Part shown: positions 863 to 51,569 of the stretch, piece after piece
Numbering within the stretch: position 1 is the stretch's first letter
How the letters are laid out: the number at the start of each line of letters is the position of its first letter
NCBI GenBank assembly: GCA_016185435.1
Contig: JACPNN010000004.1
Span: 73,635 to 137,634, forward strand
Direction of reading: 5' to 3'
DNA: 64,000 nt
From: Candidatus Aenigmatarchaeota archaeon
Lineage (GTDB): Archaea; Aenigmatarchaeota; Aenigmatarchaeia; QMZP01
The notes under the pieces: generated by a model
Seen by the model: the letters and a program-made list of their open reading frames with translations, nothing else
The model's database searches: none
What the model was told of the DNA's origin: nothing
Program-made: the position numbers and the translations under genes

Positions 863-2131
863 TCATTTGTACTTCTTGGATCTGCCCTGATAATGGCTGT
901 CATGGCCTGCGTAGTCTGAATGGGAGCTGTACATGTCCTGGCCTCCTGATTCAGCTGCCCTGGCAGGCGACAGGGGCTTGTAAGGGTTGCTTTCCTCTCC
1001 CTGAACCGGCTCGAAGCGCTTCTCGAAGTCGGCATTTGGGACATTCTCAGTATCTATTGTTGAAAGCGTGCCCATGCTTGTCCTGAAGCTCCACAGGAGC
1101 GTGCCCTTCATATCCAGACAATAGAGATTGCAGTCGAAGCCGCTGAGGAAAAGCCTATTGTTGAGGAAGGATGGAGGGGCGCATAAACCGCCTTTGGCCT
1201 GGAACCTCCAGAGAAGCCTGCCGCTTTCGTCCAGGGTATAGAGGTTGCCGTCGAAGGAGGGGAGGAAGATAAGGCCGCTGTGGAAAGAAGGCGCAACCGT
1301 GATGTCGTTGGTTGGGAATTTCCAGAGCAAGCGGCCTTCTGCGGTCAGGGCGTAGAGGTTGCCGTCGAAGGAGCCTGTATAAATTGTGCTCCTGTTTATG
1401 CTCGGATTGTATGGGCCTATAGGCTCAGAAGCGGCGAATTTCCAGAGAAGCTCGCCTGAAAGGTTCACGGAATACAGGTTCTTGTCCTTGGAGCCGAAAT
1501 ACAGAGAATCCCCCAGAACCCGGGCCCTGCTCACCACCCCATTTGTCGCAAATTTCCAGAGGACATTTCCATCAAGGGAGAGAGCATGCATATTGCTGTC
1601 TGCCGAGGGGACAAAGACCATATCCTTATGGACATGGGGATCGGAGTATATGGGGCCGTTGGTCGCATATTTCCATAGAACCTTGCCGTCCCTGCCCAGA
1701 ACATAGAGCTGGCCGTCGTGGCAGCCGAAATATATCGCATTATCAGTCACAAGCAGGCTTGTTATCACTATGTCGTTTGTAGGGAATTTCCACAGAAGCT
1801 GGCCCTCGTGGGTTATACAGTAGATGTTGCCGTCGTAGCTGCCGAAATATATGGCATCCCTGTCGGCTGCGGGCGTTCCTATTACCGGCCCTCCGGTCCT
1901 GAACCTGAATATCTCGTTCCCTTCCCTGTCAAGGGCGTACATGCTGCCGTCGCAGCAGCCGAAGTATATCACAGAGCCGCTGACCCTTGGAGGGCATGCT
2001 ATGCTGCCGCCAATGGTGAGGTGGAAGAAAGGGTCCTTTATGGCCCTTGTATTCGCAGATACCTCGACCATCCCGAAGGCGTCGGGAAGGGGCTCCATAG
2101 GCCAACTGCTCTCCTGGACGTAGTCCCTCAT
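863..2131 (-). CDS. PQQ-like beta-propeller repeat protein
   Basis: 422 aa with at least 8 repeats of the pattern DG(N)LYAL..G.LLWKF..(N)..., typical of PQQ/YVTN beta-propeller blades. Confidence 0.75.
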   Translation of the reverse strand: MRDYVQESSWPMEPLPDAFGMVEVSANTRAIKDPFFHLTIGGSIACPPRVSGSVIYFGCCDGSMYALDREGNEIFRFRTGGPVIGTPAADRDAIYFGSYDGNIYCITHEGQLLWKFPTNDIVITSLLVTDNAIYFGCHDGQLYVLGRDGKVLWKYATNGPIYSDPHVHKDMVFVPSADSNMHALSLDGNVLWKFATNGVVSRARVLGDSLYFGSKDKNLYSVNLSGELLWKFAASEPIGPYNPSINRSTIYTGSFDGNLYALTAEGRLLWKFPTNDITVAPSFHSGLIFLPSFDGNLYTLDESGRLLWRFQAKGGLCAPPSFLNNRLFLSGFDCNLYCLDMKGTLLWSFRTSMGTLSTIDTENVPNADFEKRFEPVQGEESNPYKPLSPARAAESGGQDMYSSHSDYAGHDSHYQGRSKKYK

Positions 2132-2201
2132 AATATCCTTATCTATCGAAAAAGCGATTTTAAATCTGTTGTGGCTGAAAAGCAGAAAAGAGGCGGATGG
2201 C

Positions 2202-3356
2202 CTATTTCTCCATCGCAGCCACGCCTTCCCGCATCCTTGACTTGAAGGCCTCTATGTCCTTCACCATGGCCCCTGCTGCCCTCTCATGGCCGCCGCCCAT
2301 GCCGATCCCTTCTGCGGCCTTCTTTATGATGTCACCGATGTCGAAGGCTGCGTGCTGCCATCTGGCAGAGATCTTCCAGCCTCCGGCCGACTTCTTGTAG
2401 ATTGTGATTATATTTTCAGGATAGGTCTTTGCGAGGATGCTGGATATGAGGCTTACGATGTTCAGGGGGGACTGGACCTCGTAAAAGATTATCCTGTTTT
2501 CTGTTTTCTTGTTCTTCTCGAAATCCTTCAATATTGCATCCACTTCATTCTTTACGGATTCATACATGTCGCCAAGCCTTATGTCTGAAACAAAGGAATA
2601 GAAGTCAGGGGCCTTCACCAGGGTTTCAAGGGCGTATTTGGCCCCTGTGAGGCCTTTGGCGGTTATGGCCGCTGAGATGAGCTTGGCTGCGTGGCCTGTC
2701 TTGGAGTCTATTATGCTTTCGTCGAGATCAGTGTCCACCAGATCCTTGAAGCGCTGCCTGTAGTCCTCAAGGAACTGGTTGCAGTCATGTATTGCGTAAT
2801 CAGAGATTACTCCAATAGCTGCGACCCACATGTGCTTCTGGACCATGTAGCCGAGATCCGATAAAAGGTTGTACACAAGGTAGCTTGTCGGCTGGTAGAT
2901 GCTTTTGTTTTCGAATCTGGGATTGATGTGAACAATGTTCTCTGAATTCATATTCTTATCAGGGGTGTGGTGGTCTATAACTACAAATGTTGAGTTCCTC
3001 AGGAGCTTGGACGCCTGCTCAACTTTCCTCCATTCCTGATCCACGGGAAGATCAAGGAAAACAACAACATCAGGCCTTTTTCCGTAGATCCACTTGACAA
3101 AGTCGTCGTCCATCATGGGGCCTTCCCGGGCAAAGGTCTCGAAATGGGGGAAGGCCTTGAGGAAGAGGGCTGCAGAGCTTATGCCGTCGCCGTCCTGGTG
3201 GTAGAAAAGGAGGGGCCTTTTGCTGTTTTCAAAGAGGTCCCTGAGGTTGGGGGCCATGTTATAAGTGGGGGGTGTGGGGTTTATATATGCGCAGTTCCTT
3301 AAGGGATCCACTGCATTGATGTGGAAATATAGTCTATATAACTCGATTTCCAACAT
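2202..3356 (-). CDS. DHH/DHHA1 family phosphoesterase (NrnA-like nanoRNase / pAp phosphatase or RecJ-like)
   Basis: 384 aa. DHH motif (VVIDHHTP) and DHHA1 GGGH motif (GMGGGHERAAG). Confidence 0.8.
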   Translation of the reverse strand: MLEIELYRLYFHINAVDPLRNCAYINPTPPTYNMAPNLRDLFENSKRPLLFYHQDGDGISSAALFLKAFPHFETFAREGPMMDDDFVKWIYGKRPDVVVFLDLPVDQEWRKVEQASKLLRNSTFVVIDHHTPDKNMNSENIVHINPRFENKSIYQPTSYLVYNLLSDLGYMVQKHMWVAAIGVISDYAIHDCNQFLEDYRQRFKDLVDTDLDESIIDSKTGHAAKLISAAITAKGLTGAKYALETLVKAPDFYSFVSDIRLGDMYESVKNEVDAILKDFEKNKKTENRIIFYEVQSPLNIVSLISSILAKTYPENIITIYKKSAGGWKISARWQHAAFDIGDIIKKAAEGIGMGGGHERAAGAMVKDIEAFKSRMREGVAAMEK

Positions 3357-3434
3357 TATCCTCTTTGCTGTTCTTCTTTCCCAAGAGATTGCTTATTCAT
3401 TCTCTCCTAAATAAATTGGTACCCCCAGAAAGCG

Positions 3435-6400
3435 CTACCAGTTTGGCCACTCTATGGACGGCTTAAAGACCAGATATGCTATGCCCCCCTGAACCCCTCT
3501 GGCAACCCATCTGTATGCTCCTGAAACCGGGCCCAGAGAACTGCTGAGGGCCAATATGGTTATATCGAATGCAGTACCCGCTATCTGTTTTCTCATATCC
3601 TCACTGCTGTAGCAGAAATTGTATTTCTCTCCCTGTTTCTTGCTTTCCACTGAGACGACAACCGCATCGACCGTGCATGTCGGATCGGAAGGCAGTCTAA
3701 TGGGCTTGAAGCCGTACAGCTCTTTGATATAATCGATTCTTCCGTCCTCGTCTGAATCTGCCATCCTGAACATGTTGTTTTCGTGGATAGTTATGGTATC
3801 GATAAACGCATCGGGCTCTGTTGGGGGATTCTCATCGGTGAAGGAAAGCGTGTATGCTTTCAGCCTGTCTATCGGGTCGTTCACAGTGAATATCATCAGA
3901 TCTGCAAGTTCATCGGACGTTCCTGCTGTTATGGCATCCCTTTTCGCGTGGCTGAAGAATGTTATTGCATTCCTATTTATGGCTTTGTCCAGCTTTTCGG
4001 AACGGATGATGCAGTAGGATTCCCATAGGGAAAGATCTACATGATTGTCTTTCTTTTCCAGATAAGTGAATCTGAAGAAACGGTCAATGGGACTGTTCTT
4101 GTCCGAGCTTTCAGCGTGGCTCTCTTTGTCACCGCAGATGAAATAGGGTGAGTCAAGGGTAACGTAGTCTCCGCCTCTTTTCTGCGCTGTGGCGGGGTCA
4201 ATTGTATCTATCAGTTGGTCATTGTAGTATATCTCTGCCTTGTAGCAGCTGAACTTGTCTCCCTGGCCTTCTTCTATCACAAGGGGGTTGTTGGCGGATG
4301 TCTGTACACTCGCAACATCTGTCCATCTCCTTTCATACGGCTTGCAGTTGTCAAGCTTTTGTATTTTCTCAACCGATGTCCCTGTGCTTTGGGATGGATC
4401 ATTGCCAATCAGGCCAAGCGGGGGTAATTTTATCTTTTCCAGTTTTTGATTAATATAAACAAAAAGCCTTCTTTTATCCTCGTTCCTGCTTTCCAGAAGG
4501 TCCTTGAGAGAATCGGCGAGATATGTCTTCGCCAGGAAGCTGCCGCACATTGGCTGCTCCTTGATTTCCCCAAGGTCGGGCTGGTCGCACTGGGTCACGC
4601 CTGTGATTGCGTCATGCTCGTATCCATAACATCTGATTGGCCTTGACTCAACCTTGAGGTCTCCGTGACAGGGGGAGGCCAGATAGAACTTGGTTGGGAA
4701 ATTGCCCACCACGCCAGTTCCTGATGCATAGCCCTTGTCAAGCACGACGGGTTTCCCGATTTCAACGCCGTTCAATTGATAGGTTGTGTCAAAAATCTCT
4801 GCCGGATTCTCAAAGTCTTCGCCTTTTAAGTCTTCAAGCGAGCATTTTAGGGCCCTCATCAAAAGCATGCTTCCGCCTATTGGCTCGCTTTTGAGCAGTT
4901 CACATTCACTGAGCTTGCCGAAGTAGGTTGCAATGCCCGTGAATCCAAAATACAGCATTGTTTTCTTTGCCTGATCCCACTTTATCCCTAAAAATACCTT
5001 CTGGGCCACAGCCTTTTGGGCATCTTCCTTCATCAGGGGCATAAAGTCTATCACATCTGCCCCGATTTTTTCTGAAAGTGGCTTGTTCAGCAAGGACTTT
5101 GCCTTGTCATGGTTTAGCTGGAGGAATGTCCATGCGTCAGCTTCTGTCCCTTGGGCTTTAGCAAGGGCCTTGAACGCGGGGCTGGCATCATCTACCACGT
5201 TTCGAAGTTCGCCGAATGTTTTGTAAGTTTTGACCACCTCATCACTGACGCTGTGGTAATAAACCTTTCTGATAAGGCCTGATTTGAGGGCATATTCTTC
5301 CAGGCGGTTGAGCTTGGTGTTGCCTTTCCCTATCCCCACCGCAAGGAAGGCGTCGTCCTTCAGCTTGGAGATGGATTTTTTCACGGCTTCATAGCCCATG
5401 CCGATGGTCTTGCCGAACCCTGATCTTCTGCTTGCATCGACAACTGTCTTCACAGGCGCTATGGCCCTGCGGCCAATCGATTTGAACATGAAATCGGCAG
5501 GGATCATATACAGGACGACAACTGTCGCTGATTCCCACCACGAGGAGAAGCTTTTCCAGGATGCGTCCTCTCCTTCCGGGAACTGCTGGTAATAGACAAG
5601 GTAGCTGGGATTGCCAGCGCCATAGATGAATTCCTTGGGGCTCGCAAAGCCGCCGAAATCATCCGGAAGGCTGAAGCCCAGTATCTTGCATGACTTTACA
5701 ACTTCCTCTTCTTTGCAATCCTCTGCCTTGGCCAGCTTTGCATTTCCTTCCTCCACTGTGCCTTTAAGGAGCTTTTCAGCCTCTTTCCTGCATTTTTCCT
5801 GTGCTTTCTCATTTGTATCGGCAACAATAGGGAGCATTCTCAGCGGGCCGTATGGAGGGACGGAACATTTCTCGCATGTCACCTGCTTTTTCTGGCCTTC
5901 CCTGCAGTCGATTACTGTCCTGTCAATGGGCTTGCATTTGGGGCCGGGATTTGGACCAATGTTCTTTTCACAGACATCGCTGCTGTACTTGCTTCCACAC
6001 TCTTTCTCAGGAAGCCATCTGAAGCCTGTTTCAGGGCCTGTGAGGCAGCACACGGTGTCCTTGCAGATAATATCCTTCACTACTTCGGCCTTTTCTGAAC
6101 GCTCCTTTGATTTTGCCTCTTCAGCTGCTTCAGGGGTCACATAAAGCTGGTAGCATTCATCGCTGTCATAGATCTGGCCGCTCATGACGGTATTGGTAGC
6201 GCAGACAAGGGCTGTGTAGGACTCTATTGAGGTCTTGTCGTCCTGGGGGCTGGTGGCGCAGAAAATTCCCAAATTCTTGCACATGAACTCGAACAGCTTG
6301 GCAATGCCCTGGCCGCCAGAGGCTATGATGATCAGAAGGACAAGAGCCAGAACTATAAATCCTATTATTTCAGGCCCCATCTCCTCAGCTTCGCTGCCTT

Positions 6401-6461
6401 TTCTTGCTTTACCGAAAGACATGTTATCACTTGCCTGATGAAGACTTGGAGAAGAGATCAA
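3435..6461 (-). CDS. Large (about 1000 aa) membrane-anchored, Cys-rich extracellular protein of unknown function
   Basis: One N-terminal TM helix (IIGFIVLALVLLIIIASG), then a long hydrophilic domain with many Cys pairs. The true start is probably the Met at 6422 (MSFGKARKG...), which avoids overlap with the small upstream ORF. Confidence 0.6.
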   Translation of the reverse strand: MISSPSLHQASDNMSFGKARKGSEAEEMGPEIIGFIVLALVLLIIIASGGQGIAKLFEFMCKNLGIFCATSPQDDKTSIESYTALVCATNTVMSGQIYDSDECYQLYVTPEAAEEAKSKERSEKAEVVKDIICKDTVCCLTGPETGFRWLPEKECGSKYSSDVCEKNIGPNPGPKCKPIDRTVIDCREGQKKQVTCEKCSVPPYGPLRMLPIVADTNEKAQEKCRKEAEKLLKGTVEEGNAKLAKAEDCKEEEVVKSCKILGFSLPDDFGGFASPKEFIYGAGNPSYLVYYQQFPEGEDASWKSFSSWWESATVVVLYMIPADFMFKSIGRRAIAPVKTVVDASRRSGFGKTIGMGYEAVKKSISKLKDDAFLAVGIGKGNTKLNRLEEYALKSGLIRKVYYHSVSDEVVKTYKTFGELRNVVDDASPAFKALAKAQGTEADAWTFLQLNHDKAKSLLNKPLSEKIGADVIDFMPLMKEDAQKAVAQKVFLGIKWDQAKKTMLYFGFTGIATYFGKLSECELLKSEPIGGSMLLMRALKCSLEDLKGEDFENPAEIFDTTYQLNGVEIGKPVVLDKGYASGTGVVGNFPTKFYLASPCHGDLKVESRPIRCYGYEHDAITGVTQCDQPDLGEIKEQPMCGSFLAKTYLADSLKDLLESRNEDKRRLFVYINQKLEKIKLPPLGLIGNDPSQSTGTSVEKIQKLDNCKPYERRWTDVASVQTSANNPLVIEEGQGDKFSCYKAEIYYNDQLIDTIDPATAQKRGGDYVTLDSPYFICGDKESHAESSDKNSPIDRFFRFTYLEKKDNHVDLSLWESYCIIRSEKLDKAINRNAITFFSHAKRDAITAGTSDELADLMIFTVNDPIDRLKAYTLSFTDENPPTEPDAFIDTITIHENNMFRMADSDEDGRIDYIKELYGFKPIRLPSDPTCTVDAVVVSVESKKQGEKYNFCYSSEDMRKQIAGTAFDITILALSSSLGPVSGAYRWVARGVQGGIAYLVFKPSIEWPNW

Positions 6462-6579
6462 AAAGGACCTGGGTGATGCTTTTTCCCTTGAATGCGAAAT
6501 CCACGATAAAGGCTAAAACAACCAGAAGGACGATGATTGCAATAATGATTACGACGAGAGTCTTGATCGAGAACTCCAT
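6427..6579 (-). CDS. Small single-TM membrane protein (50 aa), hypothetical
   Basis: MEFSIKTLVVIIIAIIVLLVVLAFIVDFAFKGK... lies immediately upstream of the large surface protein on the same strand. Coding status is uncertain. Confidence 0.3.
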   Translation of the reverse strand: MEFSIKTLVVIIIAIIVLLVVLAFIVDFAFKGKSITQVLFDLFSKSSSGK

Positions 6580-7055
6580 AAATAATATTAAGTCCAAGGC
6601 ATAAATAAGATATATGAGCGACGATTTTATCATGGTTGTACTGCCGTGGTTCATAGCTGCGATAATAACAGTAGTTGCTATTATATATGTTGGGGACAAA
6701 TTAGGCGTGTTCAAATGAAAGGCGATTACGGCCCTGTGACAATGTGGATGATGCTGGCACTGCTCCTTGCATTTATAATAGGACTTGTCATTCTGGTCAT
6801 TAATAACAAGTTTTATGGGCCCATTCTGAAATGATATTTTTGGGCATATTTTATAAAAAGAAAATCCAATATCAAAGGCCATTTTGCATCAGGACGGCAA
6901 CAGGATAAGCCAGAAGAGCGTATCCTGCTTGTTCTTTCCTGGAAACGTTTTCAAGTATGCAGCTTTCCCAGATACTGAATAAATTATCCACGCTTTTCCA
7001 ATGGGGCACCAACAGGTGAGGGTAATTTATGTGAAGAAAGCCAAATATTCATGGA

Positions 7056-7691
7056 ATGAAAATGAAGGCAGCTATTGTAGGCGACTGGGTTCTTATTCTT
7101 TTCGCAATAATTGGAATTTTTTCTGCAATAGCGCTTGTCACATATCTTGCAGCAAGAACTCTGGCACCGCTGTGCTGGCAGAACACTATTGAGCCTCTGG
7201 CTTCTTCCCTTACGGGAGAAAAGGGTGCCATAGGAGATCTGAGGCTTCTGGGGGGAAGAAGCGAATTCGATTTCAGGCTGCCCATGGAATATGATTGCGT
7301 GAAAAGCGTGCAGTTCAAGGGATACAAGGCATGCATGGGAATATGCGACAGCTTTGGCGGGGAGCAGGACAAAAAGATATGCAAGGAGAGATGTACAAAA
7401 TGCAAGGACAGGGATGGGTGTGTAGTTGCTGTGCCAGTGAAAAAGAGCTTTGGAAATGTTGTCTGGTCTTTTGTCTCCGGCGGTGATGCGGGTAAGACAG
7501 CAAAGCAGATCCACATAAACATCGATACATTCCCGTCTGACTATTCGTTTGAGGGTGATGATGAACTTCAGCCGCTGAAAGGAAAAGACAAGGTATACTG
7601 TCTTCACTTTTCCAAGTCAGGGGACAGTTATAATATCGTCAAGAAGGTTGTGGATGTCACAGCTTCCTGTGGAGGGTTTACGGCGGAGTGA
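7056..7691 (+). CDS. Membrane-anchored Cys-rich protein; first gene of the pilin-like operon
   Basis: 211 aa. N-terminal hydrophobic segment KAAIVGDWVLILFAIIGIFSAIALV, then a Cys-rich hydrophilic domain. The overlapping antisense ORF 6984..7607 was rejected on composition. Confidence 0.55.
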   Translation: MKMKAAIVGDWVLILFAIIGIFSAIALVTYLAARTLAPLCWQNTIEPLASSLTGEKGAIGDLRLLGGRSEFDFRLPMEYDCVKSVQFKGYKACMGICDSFGGEQDKKICKERCTKCKDRDGCVVAVPVKKSFGNVVWSFVSGGDAGKTAKQIHINIDTFPSDYSFEGDDELQPLKGKDKVYCLHFSKSGDSYNIVKKVVDVTASCGGFTAE

Positions 7692-7695
7692 TATC

Positions 7696-8160
7696 ATGAA
7701 AGGGGATGTAAGCGAGGAGCAGTCATATTTCATAGGGGCCGTAGTCATAGGTCTCATGTCGCTTGTTGTCATAGTGAACGTGTTCGTGCTCCCTTTCATG
7801 AGCGACAAATTCAAAGCCACAAACCTTGCCGCAGACATCTCATTCTACATGGGAGCCTTTTCCATCCTCGAGTCCGATGAAAAGGGAGAAGTGGAGATTG
7901 TGCTTGACAGAAAATATGACATAGAATTCAAAAGGCTGGGCCTCGCTGACATAGAAAGGCTGAAGCATATCAGTAAGACATTTGCAGGGGCTGGATTATA
8001 TGTCACTGCATATGCTTACAAAAAGGATGGCAAGGACAGGGAAATGGGACAGAGCATGTATATCATAGTCGACGATGCGGATGAAACAAAATTCACGGCA
8101 TCAGAATACATCAAGATCATAAAGAAGCCGGGGGAAAAAACGAGGTTTGAGTATCTATGA
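7696..8160 (+). CDS. N-terminally anchored small protein (pilin-like), hypothetical
   Basis: Start moved to ATG 7696 (MKGDVSEEQSYFIGAVVIGLMSLVVIVNVFV). A single hydrophobic helix follows a short charged N-terminus. The stop overlaps the next start (ATGA). Confidence 0.5.
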   Translation: MKGDVSEEQSYFIGAVVIGLMSLVVIVNVFVLPFMSDKFKATNLAADISFYMGAFSILESDEKGEVEIVLDRKYDIEFKRLGLADIERLKHISKTFAGAGLYVTAYAYKKDGKDREMGQSMYIIVDDADETKFTASEYIKIIKKPGEKTRFEYL

Positions 8161-8546
8161 TGAAGGCAAGCACACAGGGGATTGAATTCACAGTGGCTGT
8201 GGTTATTTATATATTCTTTGTCATTGGCCTTATCGTAATGATGCTGGTGTACTTGCAGACAATAAATGTCGATACATCGAATGTTGAGCCTGCCCTCAGG
8301 AAGGTGGATGTCGCCCATGCGGCAAAGAACTGCCTCACTGAAAGGGGGGAGATAAAGAAAAACCTGCTGACAGAAGAAAGGGTTCGAAAATGCGGCCTAG
8401 GCAGCTATTACATAAGGGTCACGAACCTTGAAACAAAGGAGATGTGGCAGCATGGATATAACAAAGAAGGTCTTGAGCATACAGTGTTCGCTGCCATTGA
8501 AAAGGACAATGGAGCTGATCCTGCGGAGATCTATGTCAAAGCTTAA
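8157..8546 (+). CDS. Putative class III signal peptide (pilin-like) protein
   Basis: 129 aa. N-terminus MMKASTQG|IEFTVAVVIYIFFVIGLIVMMLV resembles prepilin/class III signal peptides (G then hydrophobic with an early Glu). Confidence 0.5.
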   Translation: MMKASTQGIEFTVAVVIYIFFVIGLIVMMLVYLQTINVDTSNVEPALRKVDVAHAAKNCLTERGEIKKNLLTEERVRKCGLGSYYIRVTNLETKEMWQHGYNKEGLEHTVFAAIEKDNGADPAEIYVKA

Positions 8547-8940
8547 AGGCATAGGGCCTGAACTGATAGTGCTGATAATTATAGCAGCCTTTGGCTTCGG
8601 TTTTGCCTATCTTATCACGCATATCGACTGGATTTCTTTCGTAATAGGGATAAATAATTATCTGAAGCTGTCGTTTGATCTGGAGGACAGGGGGACGAAG
8701 ACGCTTGCATTTCTCCTGACGAGGGAGGGAGGTAGGACAGCGGCTGAAGAGATTGGCGGTTTGAGGGCTGGAAGGGAGCCTGCCGGATTTGTGGAGAAGG
8801 CTGCTGAAGCGCTGAGGATAAAGGTTGAGATAGGGGATGACAAAGGCAGGGTGATAAAGAAGTATGGGGTTGTGTCGGATGCTGTCGACACTACTATAGC
8901 TTTGCCGGGCCTGAAGAAGGGGAGGGTGTCAGTGGGATGA
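8533..8940 (+). CDS. Putative class III signal peptide (pilin-like) protein
   Basis: Start chosen at MSKLKG|IGPELIVLIIIAAFGFGFAY (KG followed by a hydrophobic stretch). A longer ORF from 8428 exists. Overlaps the previous gene by 14 nt. Confidence 0.45.
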   Translation: MSKLKGIGPELIVLIIIAAFGFGFAYLITHIDWISFVIGINNYLKLSFDLEDRGTKTLAFLLTREGGRTAAEEIGGLRAGREPAGFVEKAAEALRIKVEIGDDKGRVIKKYGVVSDAVDTTIALPGLKKGRVSVG

Positions 8941-10013
8941 AAAGGAAAGGCCTGGCTATCACAACATTGATTATTTTCGTAATCATGATATTTTTTGTCT
9001 TCATATACCAGCTGATCACGCCTCTCGGGCAGGTAAACAAACTGCTGGTTAAAGAGAAGGTGAGCCAGAAAAACTTCTTCACAGTAAGCAACTCGCTTGA
9101 CGCCGCCAAATACGGGTTCCTTGAGCCTGCGCTGAAATACTCATATTATCAGGCCTGTTATGATAACCTGAAGAAAGGCGGCTGGAAGAGGGTGGAGGAA
9201 AGCAGGAAGACCAAATATCAGGACATGGAGTTCATGCCGCTTGCCGGGAAGGAGGATTTTCTGGACAGTCTGGAGGGAGAGGCCCTGAAGAATCTTAATA
9301 TTTACACGGAAAATGGCGATGGGGCGTATGTTTTCCTCACCCAGTTCGGGGTGAGGCTGCCGCTTTATGATGATGTTAAAATAAGGCAGGAGACAGGAAA
9401 GGCTGTCATAGGAGCCGAGGGGGGGAAGCTGAAGATTGAGGAGAAGGAGCCCGATGAGACAATAAGGCTGGAGAAGGTTTCGAGGCTCGAGGCTGAAGCA
9501 GATGACAACTGCCTGCAGATGCATTCTGCTGCCCGGGAAAAGGAGGAAAAGCTGAAGGGCATGCTTGAAGAGGCCATGAAGAAAGAGATGATCAGGTGGC
9601 CTGTCCTTGGAGCCAAGGATGCTGAACACCAGACTGCCGATGATGTGTTTGCCAAGGCGGCAGGGGAGGCCGGGATAGAGGTTACCGGCATTGAGAATGG
9701 AAGACTGAAGATGGAAGAGGGCCTGAAGGGCATAAGAATTCCGGCAGGAGAAGGCACGGAAGGGCTTAATACAAATTACATTTTATTAAGAAATCTGATC
9801 AAGGCGGATATAAAAGCGAAGGAGTGCGAGGACAGGACCTGCTATAATTTCATTTATCAGGCAAGCGTGCCTGTGGGAGTGAAAATTGCCAATAAAAACG
9901 ACAAGGACAGGCTTCCTGTATTCAATGGCAAGGATGTGGCCTTTGAAGCTCTGGAGATCAGCTTTGCTTATACGCATGAGTTCGGGTATGAGAGGGGGCC
10001 TTTGATTCCTTAG
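8937..10013 (+). CDS. Large pilin-like protein with class III signal peptide-like N-terminus and coiled-coil-rich body
   Basis: 358 aa. MKRKG|LAITTLIIFVIMIFFVFIYQLI. Its ATG overlaps the upstream stop (ATGA), which suggests translational coupling. Confidence 0.5.
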   Translation: MKRKGLAITTLIIFVIMIFFVFIYQLITPLGQVNKLLVKEKVSQKNFFTVSNSLDAAKYGFLEPALKYSYYQACYDNLKKGGWKRVEESRKTKYQDMEFMPLAGKEDFLDSLEGEALKNLNIYTENGDGAYVFLTQFGVRLPLYDDVKIRQETGKAVIGAEGGKLKIEEKEPDETIRLEKVSRLEAEADDNCLQMHSAAREKEEKLKGMLEEAMKKEMIRWPVLGAKDAEHQTADDVFAKAAGEAGIEVTGIENGRLKMEEGLKGIRIPAGEGTEGLNTNYILLRNLIKADIKAKECEDRTCYNFIYQASVPVGVKIANKNDKDRLPVFNGKDVAFEALEISFAYTHEFGYERGPLIP

Positions 10014-10067: not shown

Positions 10068-10421
10068 TTATATCATCTCAAGATACTTCTTCTGCCTTAT
10101 GGCTACTGACTTCAGGCTGAGCAGGGAGATTTTTTTCCTTAAAGCCGCATCCTGGGTGCAGATCACATACCCTTTTTTGGCCATGCTGAGGAGGGCTGTG
10201 TCGACAGGCTGCCCTGATTCTATCAGGAAGCACTCTGAGCCGGCAAAATCAGCCGCCATCCTTGAGAATCTCCTTTGCCTGCTTCTTATCTTTTCAAGCT
10301 CGGCAAAGACAGAGGAAAGGGCAAACAGTTCCGGCCGGCCGAACTTGGAAAGCTCGCTTACGAGGCCTATCTTGAATGCGAAAATGTCAACAAGGAAGTT
10401 GGTGTCGAGGAGGAATTTCAT
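10068..10421 (-). CDS. vapC: PIN-domain nuclease (VapC-like toxin)
   Basis: 117 aa. N-terminal MKFLLDTNFLVD... acidic PIN signature. Confidence 0.7.
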   Translation of the reverse strand: MKFLLDTNFLVDIFAFKIGLVSELSKFGRPELFALSSVFAELEKIRSRQRRFSRMAADFAGSECFLIESGQPVDTALLSMAKKGYVICTQDAALRKKISLLSLKSVAIRQKKYLEMI

Positions 10422-10464
10422 ACATAGATTCTTTCCTCTTGATATATAAACCGATTCTGGAAAA

Positions 10465-10605
10465 CTATTTCTTCCTGGCCTTCCACTCCCTTGCGAACTC
10501 CCTCATCTTGGTGTCAATTTCGGTCTCGCTGCTGAAACTCTGGCCATATCTCTTCTTGAACTCGCCAAGAAACTGCTCTATTTCCTCGTCTCTGTCAGCA
10601 GGCAT
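10465..10605 (-). CDS. Small putative antitoxin partner of the downstream PIN gene
   Basis: Roughly 46-aa charged helical protein (MPADRDEEIEQFLGEFKKRYGQSF...) 43 nt upstream of the PIN gene. The call rests on position only. Confidence 0.3.
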   Translation of the reverse strand: MPADRDEEIEQFLGEFKKRYGQSFSSETEIDTKMREFAREWKARKK

Positions 10606-10693
10606 TGGAGGTCTATTAAAATATATTGCTGCGGTTGCTTTTAAAAGGAAGAGGGGGCCTTGCGGCAAACCCGTTATTTCTACAGCAAGAAAA

Positions 10694-11131
10694 CTAAATA
10701 ACCTCGATTGGCTCCTTCCTCCTCAAATCAGTTTTATCGAAATGCCCGTCAAAGCTTATTATGGTCTCTGCACCTGTTTTTTTGGCGGTAAGATACTGCA
10801 GGCTGTCATCGAAATCCAGCCCGATTTTCTGGGCGACAATGCTTATTGCCAGCTCTTCTCCTATAGTAGTGGTGTGGATTGTAAGGCCTATCGAATTATT
10901 AATATTCTTCAGAAAGGTTTCCAGAATAGCCAAGTTTTCCGAGAGTATTCCTTCGACTGCATGGACTGTGAATGAAGACACTATGCATTGCAGTTCACCT
11001 GAGGAAACCTTCTGCAAAAATTTTTCGCAATCTTCTGCTTTCTTTTGGTTCAGAAGGATCTCCAGAAAAATATTGGTGTCTATCAGATGCACGTCAGTCC
11101 ACCTTTCTCCATGCTTTATGCTGCAATTCAA
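10694..11131 (-). CDS. vapC: PIN-domain nuclease (VapC-like toxin)
   Basis: HLIDTNIFLEIL...D..Q PIN motifs. The true start is probably the GTG near 11092, abutting the upstream RHH gene. Confidence 0.75.
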   Translation of the reverse strand: MNCSIKHGERWTDVHLIDTNIFLEILLNQKKAEDCEKFLQKVSSGELQCIVSSFTVHAVEGILSENLAILETFLKNINNSIGLTIHTTTIGEELAISIVAQKIGLDFDDSLQYLTAKKTGAETIISFDGHFDKTDLRRKEPIEVI

Positions 11132-11321
11132 CCGAGTTTTCTCCTGATTTTATGGAGCCTCTCAAAGCTGACCAGTCTATTTTGTCTGAGGATATCCATT
11201 TTTTTATCAGGTTTTCAGTTGCGGCCTTCAGGCTGCCTCTTTTGTAGCCATACGCTTTCATAGCCTTTCTCCTGAACCTCGCCAAAACCTTTTCATCTGT
11301 GTCGATCTTTAAAGTACCCAT
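11094..11321 (-). CDS. vapB: Ribbon-helix-helix (CopG/VapB-like) antitoxin
   Basis: 75 aa. TLKIDTDEKVLARFRRKAM... beta-strand-helix-helix pattern. Sits immediately upstream of the PIN gene and overlaps it. Confidence 0.5.
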   Translation of the reverse strand: MGTLKIDTDEKVLARFRRKAMKAYGYKRGSLKAATENLIKKWISSDKIDWSALRGSIKSGENSVELQHKAWRKVD

Positions 11322-12983: not shown

Positions 12984-14372
12984 GTGATGGATTTGCCCGA
13001 AACAGAATCGTCTATACTGCTCAGAATGCTGGATAAGTATAAGCTTTTCGACATTGATATAGAGCTTGCCCAGTTCTTCCGTATCAGCAACAGGGGCGAC
13101 ATCGAGGGGCCATACAAAGGACTGCCTGAGCCTTATAGGATGGGCGGCACAGGTCGCAACATTCCCCTGGAGCATTTCAGGATAACAACAGTACGCTTCA
13201 GGAGTCGTGAAGGTGTCCCGTATATCTATTTCCGTACGCCCCGCATAGAGGCAGGCAGTGTCAAGATAGGCAAAATCAATGTGCTGGACAGGCCGCTGAA
13301 GATCAATGATCTTGTTTGGATCACACCTCAGGATGGCAGGGTAGGCCTGGTAATCGGCACAATAATCAGGATAATAGACACGGAGAGAACGAAAAAACCG
13401 CCCAAAGAGGATGAAAATGAGGAGCTTGAGAAGATCAAAGAGGAGCTTGAAGAAAACCGCAGGCTGTATGCCCTGCCTTCAGGAGAAAAGCCCGCCCTGA
13501 AGCCCTACGCCCCCGGCCCCCTGCCTGCAAATATCCCTAGGAGAGGAAGGAAGGAGAGGGGATTGTGGGAGGACAACAGACCCATACCTATGGGGCCGCT
13601 AAGGCCGCCGGCATTGCCGCCGGGAAGGGAAGGGAGACCTGAACCAAGGCCTGTAATTCTGGAGGAAGGGATTCGGGAGCCGACAATAGTGAACATTTAT
13701 GCCCTTCCGCTCGACGAAAGAGGCAGGCCAGGCCTTCATGGAGTGCAGCAGCTTCGTGCACGCATCCTGACATCAGAACCGAGAAGGTTGGAGCTTATAG
13801 ACCAGCTTCTTCCTTTAAGAAATCTTGAGCTTGATAACCCGCCTGCCCGCATACTGATCGAGGCCGAATACGATCATCCGCAGGCCGGAAGGCTTGTGGC
13901 GCACAGGGAGTTTGATCTGCATCCGGGGGTAAATAATCTGATCCTCCAGTTCAGAATTCCTTTTGGCGCTGGCGGGATCGGAGGGCCGGGAAGGCCAGAA
14001 GGGCCAGTTGGAGGAGGGCCTGCGAGGCCCGAAGGCGTCGGGGGCGGTGAAGGGGAAGGATGGTGGTTTGAAGGCCATGTTGTTGACCAGAACAATAATC
14101 CGATACCCAATGCAAGGATTACAATAGCTGGCACTGCCCATTCTGTTGCTACAGGAGCAAATGGCAGATACAGAATTCCCGCTGCAGGAGGGCTTCCGCA
14201 GGGAAACTATACTCTATTTTGCCAAGTCCCGCCAGAACAAACCCGTGGTGCTGCACAGACACATGCAGCAGATGTGAATATTGCCGAAGGCGGGCAGGCT
14301 GAAATAAGGATATTTCCAGTTGAAGTAGAGCACCGCCAGAATAGAGGCGGAGAACCAAGGAGGGAAGGATAG
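12984..14372 (+). CDS. Pro-rich protein with C-terminal carboxypeptidase-regulatory-like (CarboxypepD_reg) domain
   Basis: 462 aa with no signal peptide. Pro/Gly-rich linker, then GEGEGWWFEGHVVDQNNNPIPNARITIAGTAHSVATGANGRYRIP. Ends at TAG 14370-14372, in frame with the next ORF. Confidence 0.55.
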   Translation: MMDLPETESSILLRMLDKYKLFDIDIELAQFFRISNRGDIEGPYKGLPEPYRMGGTGRNIPLEHFRITTVRFRSREGVPYIYFRTPRIEAGSVKIGKINVLDRPLKINDLVWITPQDGRVGLVIGTIIRIIDTERTKKPPKEDENEELEKIKEELEENRRLYALPSGEKPALKPYAPGPLPANIPRRGRKERGLWEDNRPIPMGPLRPPALPPGREGRPEPRPVILEEGIREPTIVNIYALPLDERGRPGLHGVQQLRARILTSEPRRLELIDQLLPLRNLELDNPPARILIEAEYDHPQAGRLVAHREFDLHPGVNNLILQFRIPFGAGGIGGPGRPEGPVGGGPARPEGVGGGEGEGWWFEGHVVDQNNNPIPNARITIAGTAHSVATGANGRYRIPAAGGLPQGNYTLFCQVPPEQTRGAAQTHAADVNIAEGGQAEIRIFPVEVEHRQNRGGEPRREG

Positions 14373-14375
14373 ACT

Positions 14376-17300
14376 ATGCCTGCAATAATTATCAACTTCA
14401 TTATAAACATAAATGTTCCGCCGCCCCCGCCTCCTCCTCCTGGAGGGGGTGAAGGATGGATTGAAGGTCTTGTAAGAGATGAAGGCGGCAGAGCCATTGA
14501 TAATGCAAATGTTATTAATCATACTACTGGAGAACACACCCAGACCAATCATTTAGGCTACTACAGGCTTCCGCAGGATCCGCGAGAAGGTCTGACTCCC
14601 GGCCATCATCTTGTCGCATGCGGAGCAACAGGCTTTGAAGATCAGGAAAGGGAAATTGAGGTGAGACCTGGACGGGCTGCAAACGGCAATTTCACTCTTC
14701 ACAGAAGAACTGGCCGTACTCCGGCTGGCCAAGGTGTTGTCTATGGTCAAGTCTGGATAAAGAATGCGCAGGGAAAGGATGAGCCTTTCATACCCCAAAC
14801 TGAAAGAGTGCCTGACTGGCAGCAAAGGAACAGAATATATGCATATCCCTTAACTCATACCGTCCTTGGCTGGTTTGGGAGGATTCTCCCTGATACCCGT
14901 CTCAATTGGCCAGAAGCTATATCTGAAGGTCATATTGATGAGCATGGAAGATATTCTTTAAGCCTGTTTCCTGGAACCTACCAGCTCGTGTGCAATATCA
15001 CAGATCCACGCCGGGTACAATGGCCCGTAGCTGACTCAAGGAGAGATGCAGCCGGCAATATAATACAGCCACTGCCTCACCACGCTGATCCGTCTTCAGT
15101 GTATGAACCCAAGACAGCCATGGCAACAGTTCGGGCGTATCAAAGAACCAAGCATGACTTCCATTTCTACCCGCAAGGAGGTTCACGGATTGCCAGAGGC
15201 GCAAATACAGCAAGAAACTGGATCGAGCAGAGGTGGGGGGCCGGGATTACAGGGAACATTCACATCATCGCGCTTCTTGCGATAGGCGTCCTCATCTCCA
15301 ACTACTTCCATAACACCAACTTCCTTCTCGGCTTCTGGTCGCTGGTCGCGTACTTCCTGATACCTGAGCCCATACAGGGCAGGCTACAGCAGGAGCTTGA
15401 AGAAGGCCACATGCAGCTGCAGTTTAGGTGGCGGGACTTGGTAATGAGAGGAGAGAACAGAGAGCAGTTCAACAACGCGTGGAGATGGCTGCTTGGCAAC
15501 AACAATTCCCAGTTCACCGCGCTGAGGAGCTTTGCCAAGGTAATGGCCATCTGGTTCTTCAGCCAGGGACTACTGCAGAGCACCTTCGCCTTTTCGAACA
15601 TAATGCTGCTCATAGTGGTCTTTGCAGGATACTATTCCTTTGCCATAGAGTATGACACAAGGAGATCGGGCCAGGTGATAGAGTCATTCTTCAGGTTCGC
15701 CTTCCTAGGCGTGTACCTGATCCCGTGGGTTGTAGTGGCGAGGGTGTTCGATTCTAATGTCCTTGGGCTAATAGCATTTGCGTTTTTGGCCGTACCTCCC
15801 TTTTCGAGAAGGGACCAGCAGCATGAATCCTCAATAGGGTCAGGACTGGAACCGGCGATGAAGGTTGCCTTCCTTATCTGCATGATCATAGCGCTTATGT
15901 ACAGCGGGGCGATGGCCACATTCTTCCCCGAATCCCAGATGTTCCAGACGCAGACAGGTTGGGGGCTTAAGGGAGGCTTGGCAGACACGTTCTTCTTCTT
16001 CTGGTTCCTGACAACGCTGGTCGGGTTCTTTTCACCGCCACAGGAGAGGCCCGCAGCAGGATTCATCATGCTTTTCGCAGCGACTGTCATATATGCGCTT
16101 GGGCCCGGAACCCAGGAGGTGGGGCAGGGGCTGCTCGGGCCTTATTTCCCTGCATTTTACAAAGGCATGATAGGAACAATCAAGCCCGTGACCCAAGCGT
16201 TCTCTGGCTTCGGGAGCGCATTCGGTCCTGCCCTCTGTCTGCTCACCAATCCTGTGGCATGTGCACAGAACATAACTGACGGCAGATGGAGTCAAGATTC
16301 AACTACTGGGATTGCAGGGGCATACGGCGTCGAGCTGGAGGACTTCAGGATGGATGATCAGATATTCACAGAGCAGCCTTTTGCCATCACGCTGAAGCTG
16401 AACAATCTGGGCTCGTTCGATGCGAGGCATGTCGATGTCAGCTTTGCGGCCGGGGAGGATGCGGCAACTATAGAGGAGAGGGAGAGCATGTGGATAAGGC
16501 CGTTCAGATCAAGGCAGGATACAGACAACAAAAGGAAGCGGATGAACCTAGCCGAACTTGGTTTCGGTGACAGGCCTGATGACCCTCAGGGGAAGGAGGG
16601 CCTTGACTGCGTTGAAGACAGCACAGGCGTACCGGTTCTTTGCAGGAGCACCGACCGCATTGATGTCATGGAGAAGAAGGACATACAGCCCATAAGGTTC
16701 GAGAGCAATGATGAAGGGATAAAATGCAGGGCCGTCACCAAATATGAGCTGTATGAAAAGTATCTGCCCTTTGCGGCCAAGGTCTCATATGATTATGGCA
16801 TCTCATCGAGCCTTGATGTAGAGTTCCTCAGCGATGCCGAATGGCGAAGAAAGTCGCAGGCAGAGGAGCTTACTTTCCAACAGAAGATACCCTCCACCCT
16901 TTCGAATTCCCCTGTCATGCTGAATATAGACACTACACCGCAGCCGATAAGGGAGGATGTCTCATTCCCAATCAGGATGCAGCTGAAGACCGGGCCCAGA
17001 GGAGGGACGATAAACAGGACATACATGATAAATGCGGAAATACCGACGGAGCTGTGGAAGGCGAAGAGGTACTGCACACCGTCTCCCTCCAGCGAGACAG
17101 AGATTGCCCAGAAGGGCGTGACACTGGTCAGATGGGAGGAGAGCAGGATACTGCCTTCAAGGACAATCGCATGCCAGTTCAACGGATACAAGTTCCCGAA
17201 GGGCGAAAAGGAGAAAATAGGCGTGCAGCCGACAAAGAGTTTCCTGATAAAGACCAATGCAAGCTACAGGTTCGAGAAGGCGGAGCAGACCATAGGCAAG

Positions 17301-17750
17301 CTGGAATGGGGCGGGGTGGCGTGCTGCTATCCGGCAGGGCAGTACAAAGGGCAGGACGGAGACAAATTCTGCCAGTCCCTTGGATATCCTGCATGCGATG
17401 CAACGACTCATCAATGCAAGGCGGAGGCGCAGACGTGGGGGCCTGCCGATCATTGCAAGAACCAGATAGCGTCAAACCCGAAGGAGAAGTGCAACCTTGG
17501 TGCTGGAGGATGCTCATCGGATGCGGAGTGCTGCTCTGACCCTGCTGATTGCCAGGGCTCTGGAGGGCTGTTTGATGTCGATAGCGATGGAAATCCTGAT
17601 TCTCTGGAATGCAGGAGAAAAATAGCCAATGGCGTCTGCTGCCCTGCAAAGACAAGCGACAATGACTGCGCTGCAGCCCACCAGATGTTCACGGAGAACA
17701 AGAGCCCGGCAGAGGTAAGTGACTTCCTGAGAAAGAATACGGGTCCCTGA
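14376..17750 (+). CDS. Giant (1124 aa) polytopic membrane protein with N-terminal poly-Pro + CarboxypepD_reg-like domain and Cys-rich C-terminal domain
   Basis: PPPPPPPPGGGEGWIEGLVRDEGGRAIDNANVINHTTGEHTQTNHLGYYRLP, then at least 8 predicted TM helices (about aa 290-620), a large hydrophilic domain, and a C-terminus with more than 20 Cys. Confidence 0.6.
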   Translation: MPAIIINFIININVPPPPPPPPGGGEGWIEGLVRDEGGRAIDNANVINHTTGEHTQTNHLGYYRLPQDPREGLTPGHHLVACGATGFEDQEREIEVRPGRAANGNFTLHRRTGRTPAGQGVVYGQVWIKNAQGKDEPFIPQTERVPDWQQRNRIYAYPLTHTVLGWFGRILPDTRLNWPEAISEGHIDEHGRYSLSLFPGTYQLVCNITDPRRVQWPVADSRRDAAGNIIQPLPHHADPSSVYEPKTAMATVRAYQRTKHDFHFYPQGGSRIARGANTARNWIEQRWGAGITGNIHIIALLAIGVLISNYFHNTNFLLGFWSLVAYFLIPEPIQGRLQQELEEGHMQLQFRWRDLVMRGENREQFNNAWRWLLGNNNSQFTALRSFAKVMAIWFFSQGLLQSTFAFSNIMLLIVVFAGYYSFAIEYDTRRSGQVIESFFRFAFLGVYLIPWVVVARVFDSNVLGLIAFAFLAVPPFSRRDQQHESSIGSGLEPAMKVAFLICMIIALMYSGAMATFFPESQMFQTQTGWGLKGGLADTFFFFWFLTTLVGFFSPPQERPAAGFIMLFAATVIYALGPGTQEVGQGLLGPYFPAFYKGMIGTIKPVTQAFSGFGSAFGPALCLLTNPVACAQNITDGRWSQDSTTGIAGAYGVELEDFRMDDQIFTEQPFAITLKLNNLGSFDARHVDVSFAAGEDAATIEERESMWIRPFRSRQDTDNKRKRMNLAELGFGDRPDDPQGKEGLDCVEDSTGVPVLCRSTDRIDVMEKKDIQPIRFESNDEGIKCRAVTKYELYEKYLPFAAKVSYDYGISSSLDVEFLSDAEWRRKSQAEELTFQQKIPSTLSNSPVMLNIDTTPQPIREDVSFPIRMQLKTGPRGGTINRTYMINAEIPTELWKAKRYCTPSPSSETEIAQKGVTLVRWEESRILPSRTIACQFNGYKFPKGEKEKIGVQPTKSFLIKTNASYRFEKAEQTIGKLEWGGVACCYPAGQYKGQDGDKFCQSLGYPACDATTHQCKAEAQTWGPADHCKNQIASNPKEKCNLGAGGCSSDAECCSDPADCQGSGGLFDVDSDGNPDSLECRRKIANGVCCPAKTSDNDCAAAHQMFTENKSPAEVSDFLRKNTGP

Positions 17751-18336: not shown

Positions 18337-19259
18337 TGTGCTATCCCGAATTAGTTAGAGCCTTCCTGTCACTATAAAATACCTCGGCAGGGTATTTATA
18401 GCCTATAGCGCCGCATGGCCTCCTATAGTTCCAGTATCTAACGAACTTACCGTGGTCGCCTTTGGTGACCCATATCTCCGCCTCATAGCAGCCATGGAAA
18501 TTCTCAATCTTGCCGCAGGTAGTCGGTCTCTTTACAGTGCTGTGGATAACCTGCACTCCCTGCTGTTCGCAGAACAGCTCGAAATCTGTCAGCTGTCCGC
18601 TCAGGTTGTTCCTGAACTGGCTGCCGTTGTCTGTCAGTATCTGCTCCGGAGTCCCGTATCTCCTGAAGGCTTGCGCTACAAGCCTTATTGCATTCTCCAT
18701 CGTGGCTTCATCGAACTTCTTTGACGCCGCGACAAACCTCGAATGGTCGTCATAAAACGTCAGCATGGGATTGCCGATCAGCACATCCTTCCAGTCTCCC
18801 TGCCACAGGGACATGCTGTGCTGCCTTTCCCATCGAGTCCTGCCCCATGTCCTTCTTTCCCTGGTTATGGGGCTGTTGAGGTTCTTTTCCTTGATGAGCT
18901 GGTATATGCGGTTATGCGGTATGTGCACCCCATGGTGCACATCGAGATGTCCTTCTATCTTGGTCGGCCCCCAGCGATAGGCTTTCCTCCATATCTGGAT
19001 CCTCCTTGAATCGTTGGCGCCTATGGTGTATCTGGCCTTCGGTCCAGGCTTCCTCTTGTTGACAAGGGAGGCGTACTCGCCTTTGTTTATCCGCAACTTC
19101 CAGAGAAAGTAAGTGCTTTCCGGTATATTCAGCTCTCTCCGTATGTCTATGTCGCTCCAGCCTTCTCTTAGCTTGAGCAGCATCATTGCTATCTTGTTGT
19201 CCCTGTCCATCGAATCACCTCATCCTGTTATAGGTGACTCCAACTAATAGGGATAGCTC
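18337..19259. mobile_element. Insertion sequence (about 923 bp) with a single DDE/rve transposase gene, imperfect terminal IRs and a 16-bp flanking direct repeat
   Basis: Left end TGTGCTATCCCGAATTAGTTAGAG (18337..18360). The right end is its inverted complement GCTATCCCTATTAGTTGGAG (19239..19258). The 16-mer ATATTTAAATGCTTTT occurs directly on both flanks (18321..18336 and 19260..19275). Confidence 0.75.
18341..19210 (-). CDS. DDE transposase, integrase-core (rve) type
   Basis: 289 aa. N-terminal HTH, then an rve-like catalytic core (WQGDW...D...LTDNGSQF...E). Confidence 0.8.
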   Translation of the reverse strand: MDRDNKIAMMLLKLREGWSDIDIRRELNIPESTYFLWKLRINKGEYASLVNKRKPGPKARYTIGANDSRRIQIWRKAYRWGPTKIEGHLDVHHGVHIPHNRIYQLIKEKNLNSPITRERRTWGRTRWERQHSMSLWQGDWKDVLIGNPMLTFYDDHSRFVAASKKFDEATMENAIRLVAQAFRRYGTPEQILTDNGSQFRNNLSGQLTDFELFCEQQGVQVIHSTVKRPTTCGKIENFHGCYEAEIWVTKGDHGKFVRYWNYRRPCGAIGYKYPAEVFYSDRKALTNSG

Positions 19260-49266: not shown

Positions 49267-49286
49267 ACCAATTGGGGGGGGGATAT

Positions 49287-51526: not shown

Positions 51527-51569
51527 CATATCGAACTAACTGTCTCTGTAGTTGTTGCCAATTCTCTCC

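Follow-up and report, generated by a model that had tools for sequence, protein, structure and literature searches.

The 64,000-nucleotide (nt) stretch of Candidatus Aenigmatarchaeota DNA analyzed here (the window) contains five co-oriented genes, designated g1 to g5, which an earlier note on this DNA had described as a translationally coupled operon of class III signal peptide-like proteins. Plus-strand open reading frames (ORFs) were found at exactly the coordinates given for the operon, 7056 to 10013, and all five products have the basic N terminus and single hydrophobic helix claimed for them; the Cys-rich member is g1. The claimed overlaps are present at g2/g3 and g4/g5, which have an ATGA junction in common, and at g3/g4, which overlap by 14 nt, but not at g1/g2, where a 4-nt gap (TGA TATC ATG) remains with the g2 start at 7696. 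A GGAG sequence lies 9 nt upstream of the g2 ATG at 7696. Gene callers start g2 at the upstream ATG at 7654, which yields a 168-amino-acid (aa) protein overlapping g1.

The five-gene extent proved to be too small. Only 34 AT-rich bp separate the divergent start codons to the left of g1, and therefore the full unit is a nine-gene divergent locus spanning 3435 to 10013, with the five noted genes as its conserved core and four genes that had been missed (Table 1). The 34-bp spacer is a putative shared promoter region.

Table 1. Features of the nine-gene divergent locus, in window coordinates. A slash marks the putative end of a leader.
Feature	Position	Strand	Product or description
big	3435-6422	-	995 aa, 28 Cys; N terminus MSFGKARKG/SEAEEMGPEIIGFIVLALVLLIII; conserved hydrophobic C-terminal region
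s50	6427-6579	-	50 aa, single helix, MEFSIKTLVV..., without leader; shares its strand with big and lies immediately upstream of it
Spacer	6580-6613		34 bp, AT-rich, between the divergent starts of s50 and the 34-aa gene
34-aa gene	6614-6718	+	Single-helix protein MSDDFIMVVLPWFIAAIITVVAIIYVGDKLGVFK; ATGA overlap with the next gene
39-aa gene	6715-6834	+	MKG/DYGPVTMWMMLALLLAFIIGLVILV... (MKG/DYGPVTM...); Flp-sized; class III-like N terminus
g1	7056-7691	+	211 aa; N terminus MKMKA/AIVGDWVLILF...; 10 Cys
g2	7696-8160	+	154 aa; N terminus MKG/DVSEEQSYFIGAVVIGL...
g3	8157-8546	+	129 aa; N terminus MMKA/STQGIEFTVAVVIY...
g4	8533-8940	+	135 aa; N terminus MSKLKG/IGPELIVLIII...; conserved D-R/x-G-T-K/E motif
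g5	8937-10013	+	358 aa; N terminus MKRKG/LAITTLIIF...; signature protein of the locus

The same gene order was found in 11 genome-derived and 20 metagenome-derived loci, with overlapping junctions in those loci whose junctions were read. Hidden Markov models (HMMs) built from all loci retrieve g1 to g5 in order on every contig that is long enough, in both sets of loci. A gene order that recurs this often is far beyond a chance arrangement of ORFs, and the conservation of synteny that the earlier note had proposed to check is thereby borne out in about 30 related loci (identified below by L numbers). An exhaustive profile search defined a g5 family of 237 representative clusters. All members and sources that carry an organism name are Ca. 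Aenigmatarchaeota, a DPANN phylum of tiny, symbiotic archaea, and the nine-gene locus appears to be specific to that phylum. The closest g5 homologs are 67 to 69% identical and lie in identical synteny in two metagenome-assembled genomes (L007 and L008). Distant homologs, with 26 to 31% identity, occur in L005 and L006, and the overall range of g5 across the loci is 22 to 69%. In L005 and L006 the successive positions are occupied by a 229- to 234-aa protein, an SLT protein, a 151- to 158-aa protein, a Peptidase_M23 protein, and the g5 homolog, preceded upstream by a 717-aa protein and small membrane proteins. Profile comparison demonstrated homology between the window group and the L005/L006 group for big, s50, g3, the N-terminal domain of g4, and g5. 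The g1 and g2 proteins of the two groups were not linked by pairwise profile comparison, although the all-loci HMMs do recover both. A 50-sequence g5 alignment was too divergent for a locus scan, and few proteins were recovered with it in a word-indexed search.

The genes flanking the locus are housekeeping genes, encoding fibrillarin, a RecJ-like DHH protein, PcrB, FtsY, Alba, and an RNase P subunit. This setting bears on whether the locus is of mobile origin, as part of an integrated virus, a plasmid, or another such element. Such an origin might be suggested by the toxin-antitoxin genes of PIN and VapB type directly downstream (10068 to 11321) and by an rve-family integrase at 18341 to 19210. 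However, searches of eight locus proteins against PHROGs gave no significant match, the only marginal one (E = 0.004) falling on the membrane helix of g1, and the GC content is not distinctive. A mobile origin was rejected because the same housekeeping neighbors accompany the locus across distant members of the phylum, over the whole range of g5 identity, and the toxin-antitoxin genes vary between loci when the operon does not. The PIN genes directly flanking the operon differ between related loci. We consider a mobile element to be a very improbable explanation.

Several minor features of the neighborhood were recorded. Toxin-antitoxin-type genes occur in the window at 10068 to 11321 (minus strand), 23605 to 23949 (plus strand), and 46576 to 47649 (minus strand), and comprise PIN_9, a PIN gene with a small partner, a HepT-like RNase, and a nucleotidyltransferase. 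The integrase, a 289-aa minus-strand product about 8 kb downstream of the operon, is probably part of an insertion sequence. A DUF63 membrane protein is encoded about 6 to 10 kb from the locus both in the window (20376 to 21437, minus strand) and in L018 (12961 to 13911, minus strand). The two genomes are distantly related, and the shared position may reflect either conserved synteny or coincidence.

Among the members outside the core, big has orthologs of 717 to 1063 aa at the same position in L005, L007, L008, L016, L019, L020, L022, L024, L028, L034, and L035. No Pfam or PDB sequence match was found for big, and Pfam was likewise blank on ten of its orthologs; it is a candidate large adhesin or tip component. 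The metagenomic locus L035 has tandem big paralogs (976 and 929 aa) at 1765 to 4695 and 5162 to 7951, upstream of s50 and g1 to g5. The s50 gene is kept in 14 loci as MEFTI(R/K)-type proteins of 49 to 82 aa, and small MKG/KKG proteins of 34 to 67 aa stand at the position of the 39-aa gene in L005, L007, L012, L016, L018, and L020. The 34-aa gene is known from its gene call and translation in the window. Within the core, g1 has a conserved C-W motif right after the helix; its orthologs in L007 and L008 are 38 to 39% identical, and HMMs found it in 17 further loci. In a 23-sequence alignment of the g3 family, D51, H54, C59, and H108 are invariant, and longer members have several further Cys residues that are nearly invariant, which suggests a metal site or a disulfide-stabilized site. 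The g5 proteins share the motif YS.YQACYD.LKKGGW. A dense group of thiol-disulfide genes lies elsewhere in the window at 48643 to 54098, encoding DUF3179, DsbD-type membrane proteins, a thioredoxin/AhpC-TSA fusion, and an 842-aa DsbH/DsbD-like protein, and would fit a need for oxidation of the Cys-rich g1 and big.

The N termini were tested for a class III (prepilin-type) signature, defined as a short basic leader that ends in [K/R/D/E]-[G/A/S] and runs directly into about 20 hydrophobic residues, the whole lying in the N-terminal ~35 aa. The signature claimed for the five products is present in every one (g1 MKMKA/A, g2 MKG/D, g3 MMKA/S, g4 MSKLKG/I, and g5 MKRKG/L), and the families conserve it. 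Among the full-length members of the g5 family, [KR][GAS] directly precedes the helix in 137 of 147, with K at 88%, G at 81%, and A at 18% of the sites and leaders that range from 3 to 32 aa; the ten exceptions resemble miscalled starts. The 23-member g3 alignment shows leaders of 0 to 22 aa, an invariant K, then G, A, or S, and then a conserved stretch, DYEFVTTPLGVI (DYEFVTTPLG). The g3 site is therefore likely to fall after MMKA, and not after the QG that had been suggested. Across the loci, [KR][GA] stands before the helix in 26/26 g5, 20/23 g4 (often as KGQ), 19/23 g3, 16/20 g1, and 15/20 g2 proteins, and in 12 of the 13 small proteins at the position of the 39-aa gene. A six-frame scan of the 64 kb found 11 distinct ORFs with [KR][GA] and a hydrophobic N terminus, 7 of which fall within the 6.6 kb of the locus. 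The sites also resemble experimentally supported ones, namely, the KGQ(V/L/I) sites of EppA substrates and the KAIS, RALS, and RAVS sites of PibD substrates (PMC4371748, Table 1). A further class III-like N terminus, MKNRNNGRG/AYYLIFLLLALAVIFY, was seen on a 181-aa protein encoded at 25298 to 25843 (minus strand), ahead of a bifunctional nuclease (BFN) domain. It is possibly a surface-displayed nuclease, in an organism thought to scavenge nucleotides.

Beyond the helices, Pfam and NCBIfam show no known domain in any of the five proteins, in agreement with the earlier note's view that the mature parts are unrelated to known archaellins. Searches of Pfam, NCBIfam, and PHROGs with the five proteins, big, and the small proteins gave only sub-threshold matches on membrane helices, and PDB sequence searches with a g3 profile, a g5 profile, and big returned SLT only, through the C-terminal extension columns of g5. 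The g3 model, from the 23-sequence alignment, has a predicted local distance difference test score (pLDDT) of 84.5 and consists of a helix at residues 5 to 60 followed by a four-strand antiparallel sheet. The AlphaFold2 model of g5, from the 50-sequence alignment, has a pLDDT of 89.1 and a predicted template modeling score of 0.80, with helices spanning residues 6 to 79 and then an alpha/beta body; g5 had been called a coiled-coil protein, and the model is instead mixed alpha/beta behind a long N-terminal helix. In both models the membrane helix runs on into a long extracellular helix packed on a sheet. A pilin fold had been anticipated, and neither predicted fold matches any solved pilin. With a confident model and no fold match in the PDB, g5 appears to have a fold of which no relative has been solved.

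The core proteins carry enzyme domains in most of the related loci that were sampled. SLT is found on g2 and M23 on g4, and g5 bears SLT, amidase, VanY, YkuD, or glucosaminidase. The long g2 orthologs (289 to 339 aa) have a C-terminal SLT lytic transglycosylase domain in all cases with a Pfam hit (L005, L006, L018, and L033); the 289-aa ortholog of L042 had no Pfam hit. The long g4 orthologs (311 to 377 aa) have Peptidase_M23 in every one tested (L005, L006, L018, L020, L022, L026, L033, and L042), and at least 90% of 14 sequences retain the metal-binding motifs HxxxD and HxH. Among 33 long g5 members, 15 have SLT and 3 have Amidase_3. Single g5 members carry YkuD, Peptidase_M15_4, Glucosaminidase, PG_binding_1, or a GDSL lipase, and one further g5 has VanY. 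In L022 and L019, SLT is found as a separate gene of 186 to 187 aa at the start of the cluster, with basic, G-terminated leaders (MFRG/ and MPKKG/, respectively). SLT, M23, VanY, and Amidase_3 thus stand behind KG-helix N termini in the orthologs, as bindosome cargo would, and not in the five proteins of the window. At least 7 of about 20 distinct complete loci lack hydrolase domains altogether, those of the window, L007, and L008 among them. The variable fusions, taken with these enzyme-free loci, indicate that the conserved proteins are a scaffold and the hydrolases interchangeable cargo.

The specificity of these families (MurNAc-L-Ala amidase and D-Ala-D-Ala carboxypeptidase) is for bacterial murein and not for pseudomurein. 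Since related loci bear the hydrolases on the same scaffold proteins, the assembly there would present wall-cutting enzymes to bacterial peptidoglycan, with a host or prey cell as the most plausible target. The alternative is that the archaeon remodels a murein-like wall of its own, using anchored enzymes and a scaffold in the manner of a divisome or elongasome. The domains do span a self-remodeling range (SLT, M23, Amidase_3, VanY or M15, glucosaminidase, PG_binding_1, and the L,D-transpeptidase YkuD), and the housekeeping setting (PcrB, FtsY, Alba, and the RNase P subunit) would suit such a role. However, to our knowledge archaea do not make murein, and no murein synthesis gene is among the annotated genes of the window and related loci, whose flanks are only partly annotated. 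Moreover, the hydrolase-free loci are hard to square with an essential wall role, and M23 is tabulated in only 4 of 24 Aenigmarchaeota genomes. We therefore consider self-remodeling unlikely. In the window lineage the hydrolases were lost or never present; it has the scaffold without the enzymes, and so the role there is likely adhesion or contact.

The reading that we favor, with confidence that is about evenly balanced, is that the locus encodes a previously undescribed minor-pilin-like or bindosome-like surface assembly. From the observed gene structure, conservation, N-terminal motif, domain fusions, and distribution of machinery, we infer leader cleavage, fiber assembly, the identity of a target cell, and the role in the window organism. 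The locus products would be inserted in the membrane with the N terminus in the cytoplasm, and an A24-family class III signal peptidase, encoded elsewhere, would cleave most of them behind the conserved Gly or Ala and so release the short basic leader. The hydrophobic helices at the mature N termini would let g1 to g5 assemble in fixed proportions, which the translational coupling supports, giving either a short pseudopilus or a minor-pilin-like complex at a tip or base. Assembly would be driven by a FlaI/FlaJ(TadC)-type ATPase and platform, likewise encoded elsewhere. The 995-aa protein is a candidate adhesin, and the proteins of 34 to 50 aa are candidate Flp-sized subunits or membrane parts. 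The finished assembly would offer murein hydrolases to the bacterial wall in the enzyme-bearing lineages and would serve contact or adhesion only in the lineage of the window. Of the idea of a pilin-type set as first put forward, the class III N termini and the lack of nearby machinery stand, and the glycan link and the five-gene extent do not.

Several points weigh against this reading. The class III signal peptide check that had been proposed came out negative at the level of known models: none of the five proteins matched a pilin, archaellin, or class III model (PF07790, PF04021, PF01917, or TIGR02537) in Pfam or NCBIfam at E ≤ 0.1. No secretion ATPase, FlaJ/TadC protein, or A24 peptidase is encoded within about 10 kb of any of the ~30 loci (~475 kb). 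The [KR][GA] motif is present in only 7 of 15 big orthologs and in none of 14 s50 proteins, and it is also missing from g1, g2, and g3 of L022 and from g3 of L019. Ordinary signal anchors, too, would be expected to have a basic residue ahead of their membrane helix. None of the nine window proteins has an SLT (PF01464), Peptidase_M23 (PF01551), or other hydrolase domain, and the link of this locus to murein is by orthology only. Leader processing, like the filament, is predicted from the sequence.

The remaining point concerns glycosylation. N-x-S/T sequons are absent from the nine window proteins (2,071 aa), against 6.2 expected, and are depleted in 10 of 11 loci, with 44 observed versus about 109 expected. 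Other putative surface proteins of the window are not depleted, namely, an LTD-domain protein at 42275 to 43879 (14 versus 6.8 expected) and an S-layer-like protein at 14376 to 17750 (8 versus 5.3). The depletion is unlike characterized archaeal pilins, and it counts against the assembly proposed here. The WbpB/E/D-like genes reported in the window are indeed present, at 38903 to 41392; the suggested link of the operon to an N-glycan pathway was contradicted by these counts and was rejected because the sequons are absent. Two large plus-strand proteins at 12984 to 17750 (462 and 1,124 aa), with CarboxypepD_reg domains and Pro/Gly-rich stretches, weakly match an anammox S-layer glycoprotein. 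Both probably belong to the S-layer or the cell surface, and a similar protein follows the locus in L008.

Several of the points above would equally suit a rival explanation, which we regard as possible though doubtful, in which the products are ordinary uncleaved, signal-anchored (type II) proteins. They would then form a membrane-tethered extracellular complex for envelope organization or cell-cell contact, with no fiber, and the hydrolase domains, where present, would merely be tethered to the cell surface. The lack of type IV filament machinery near any of the ~30 loci would be expected of such a complex, as would the lack of a pilin family match or of a pilin among the fold matches, the missing motif in s50, about half of the big orthologs, and several genes of the L019/L022 clade, and the absence of sequons that sets these proteins apart from known archaeal pilins. 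However, a plain signal anchor depends on positive charge and has no requirement for an invariant small residue where the helix begins, and that residue is kept in 137 of 147 divergent g5 proteins behind leaders of very different length. One motif also recurs in seven nonhomologous proteins of the locus, and A24 peptidases are near-universal in a phylum with few annotated substrates for them. Because an anchor would not demand an invariant small residue after leaders of variable length, we prefer a class III signal peptide as the best reading of these N termini, as judged from sequence.

The missing machinery deserves closer consideration. No protein with PF00437, PF00482, or PF01478 is encoded in the 64-kb window. 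The earlier note's statement that an assembly ATPase, a platform protein, and a prepilin peptidase are lacking there is confirmed, and the same holds for the ~475 kb of related loci; neither the window nor any related locus links these genes to a PilB/FlaI ATPase and a PilC/FlaJ/TadC platform gene. A search of 43 loci for Walker A motifs typical of secretion ATPases yielded FtsY and a kinase only, and the polytopic membrane proteins encoded on either side are Na/H exchangers, EamA, DUF63, and DUF373, none of them FlaJ or A24. A gene pair downstream in L018 (553 and 578 aa), considered as an ATPase and platform protein, was rejected by Pfam. However, archaeal pilin genes commonly lie apart from their machinery, and linkage is not obligatory (PMC4858521). 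In published tables of Aenigmarchaeota genomes, Peptidase_A24 (PF01478) is found in 22 of 24 and FlaI, FlaJ, and TadC are each found in 23 of 24, whereas recognized pilins (arCOG02420) occur in only 5 of 24 (Li et al. 2021, PMC8407114, Data Set S1). The missing local machinery is less telling because archaeal pilins are often unlinked and because the phylum tables list A24, FlaI, and FlaJ. The phylum thus has processing and assembly proteins and few annotated substrates, by this phylum-level tabulation. A genome-wide lack of prepilin peptidase had been named as evidence that would overturn the pilin idea; at the level of the phylum, that lack is not seen.

The locus shares the logic of known minor-pilin, bindosome, and Epd/Tad systems, from which it differs in sequence, in fold, and in gene linkage. 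Among minor-pilin operons that include a large tip protein are the bacterial FimU-PilVWXE set with PilY1 and GspH-I-J-K of the type II secretion system; here as there, four to five small, cotranscribed, and translationally coupled proteins of prepilin type are encoded beside one very large one. Their mature parts are likewise mutually unrelated, and the major subunit or machinery may be elsewhere. Archaeal type IV pilus loci have also been predicted to have about five minor pilins and a PilY-like adhesin (PMC4858521). In the Sulfolobus bindosome, functional non-pilin proteins are mounted at the surface by a class III signal together with small pilin-like proteins (PMC4371748), as proposed here. 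The bindosome cargo is solute-binding proteins, whereas the cargo in the locus orthologs is cell wall hydrolases; moreover, this locus lacks a Bas-like ATPase or platform gene, belongs to another phylum, and encodes unrelated proteins. The Epd pili of Methanococcus are processed by EppA at KGQ-type sites, which are common in g4 and g5 too, Q being the commonest +1 residue of g5 (20 of 137). Tad/Flp pili (with TadV) combine a tiny Flp pilin, TadE/F pseudopilins, and the large TadG, and the locus likewise has helix-only proteins of 34 to 65 aa, medium-sized pseudopilin-like proteins, and one large protein. Unlike the Epd and Tad systems, it has no match to PF04021 or a Flp model, no conserved Glu at +5, and no adjacent tadA/B/C or epdJKL genes.

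Bacterial-type murein-cleaving domains have been noted before on predicted surface proteins of DPANN archaea. Woesearchaeota and Pacearchaeota encode large extracellular murein lytic transglycosylases, which were interpreted as a means of attachment to bacterial walls or of their degradation (PMC8204110). Each of those is a stand-alone giant, the longest reaching 3,000 aa, from another DPANN phylum, whereas the Aenigmatarchaeota locus has modular enzymes on a multiprotein, pilin-like scaffold. The same survey lists an Aenigmarchaeota-specific protein module without functional prediction (PMC8204110), and we found no description of the nine-gene locus in the literature on DPANN or Aenigmarchaeota. 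The hosts of Aenigmatarchaeota are still poorly understood (PMC8407114). The locus gives the "dark" proteins of the phylum a testable role, as putative substrates of the class III peptidase and FlaI/FlaJ proteins that nearly every genome carries. We know of no cultivated Aenigmatarchaeota.

Murein enzymes have been fused repeatedly and in modular fashion to three different scaffold proteins. These fusions provide direct genomic evidence of action on bacterial walls by at least part of the phylum, and they turn the question of host identity into an experiment. If the proposed assembly is real, the bindosome principle would extend from nutrient binding to cell wall attack. In its most far-reaching form, which we put forward only tentatively, the locus would encode an undescribed, phylum-specific, pilin-like contact organelle, built from protein families without known relatives, run by the seemingly substrate-less A24, FlaI, and FlaJ proteins, and in many lineages armed with variable murein hydrolases. 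Bacteria, and not other archaea, would in that case be the cells to which these DPANN archaea attach or on which they feed or prey. The window itself represents a more modest finding, a lineage with an enzyme-free scaffold. Elsewhere in the window, a minus-strand gene call at 31124 to 32599 (477 aa) joins MtrA, thymidylate synthase, and the pterin-binding DUF4346 in an unusual fusion.

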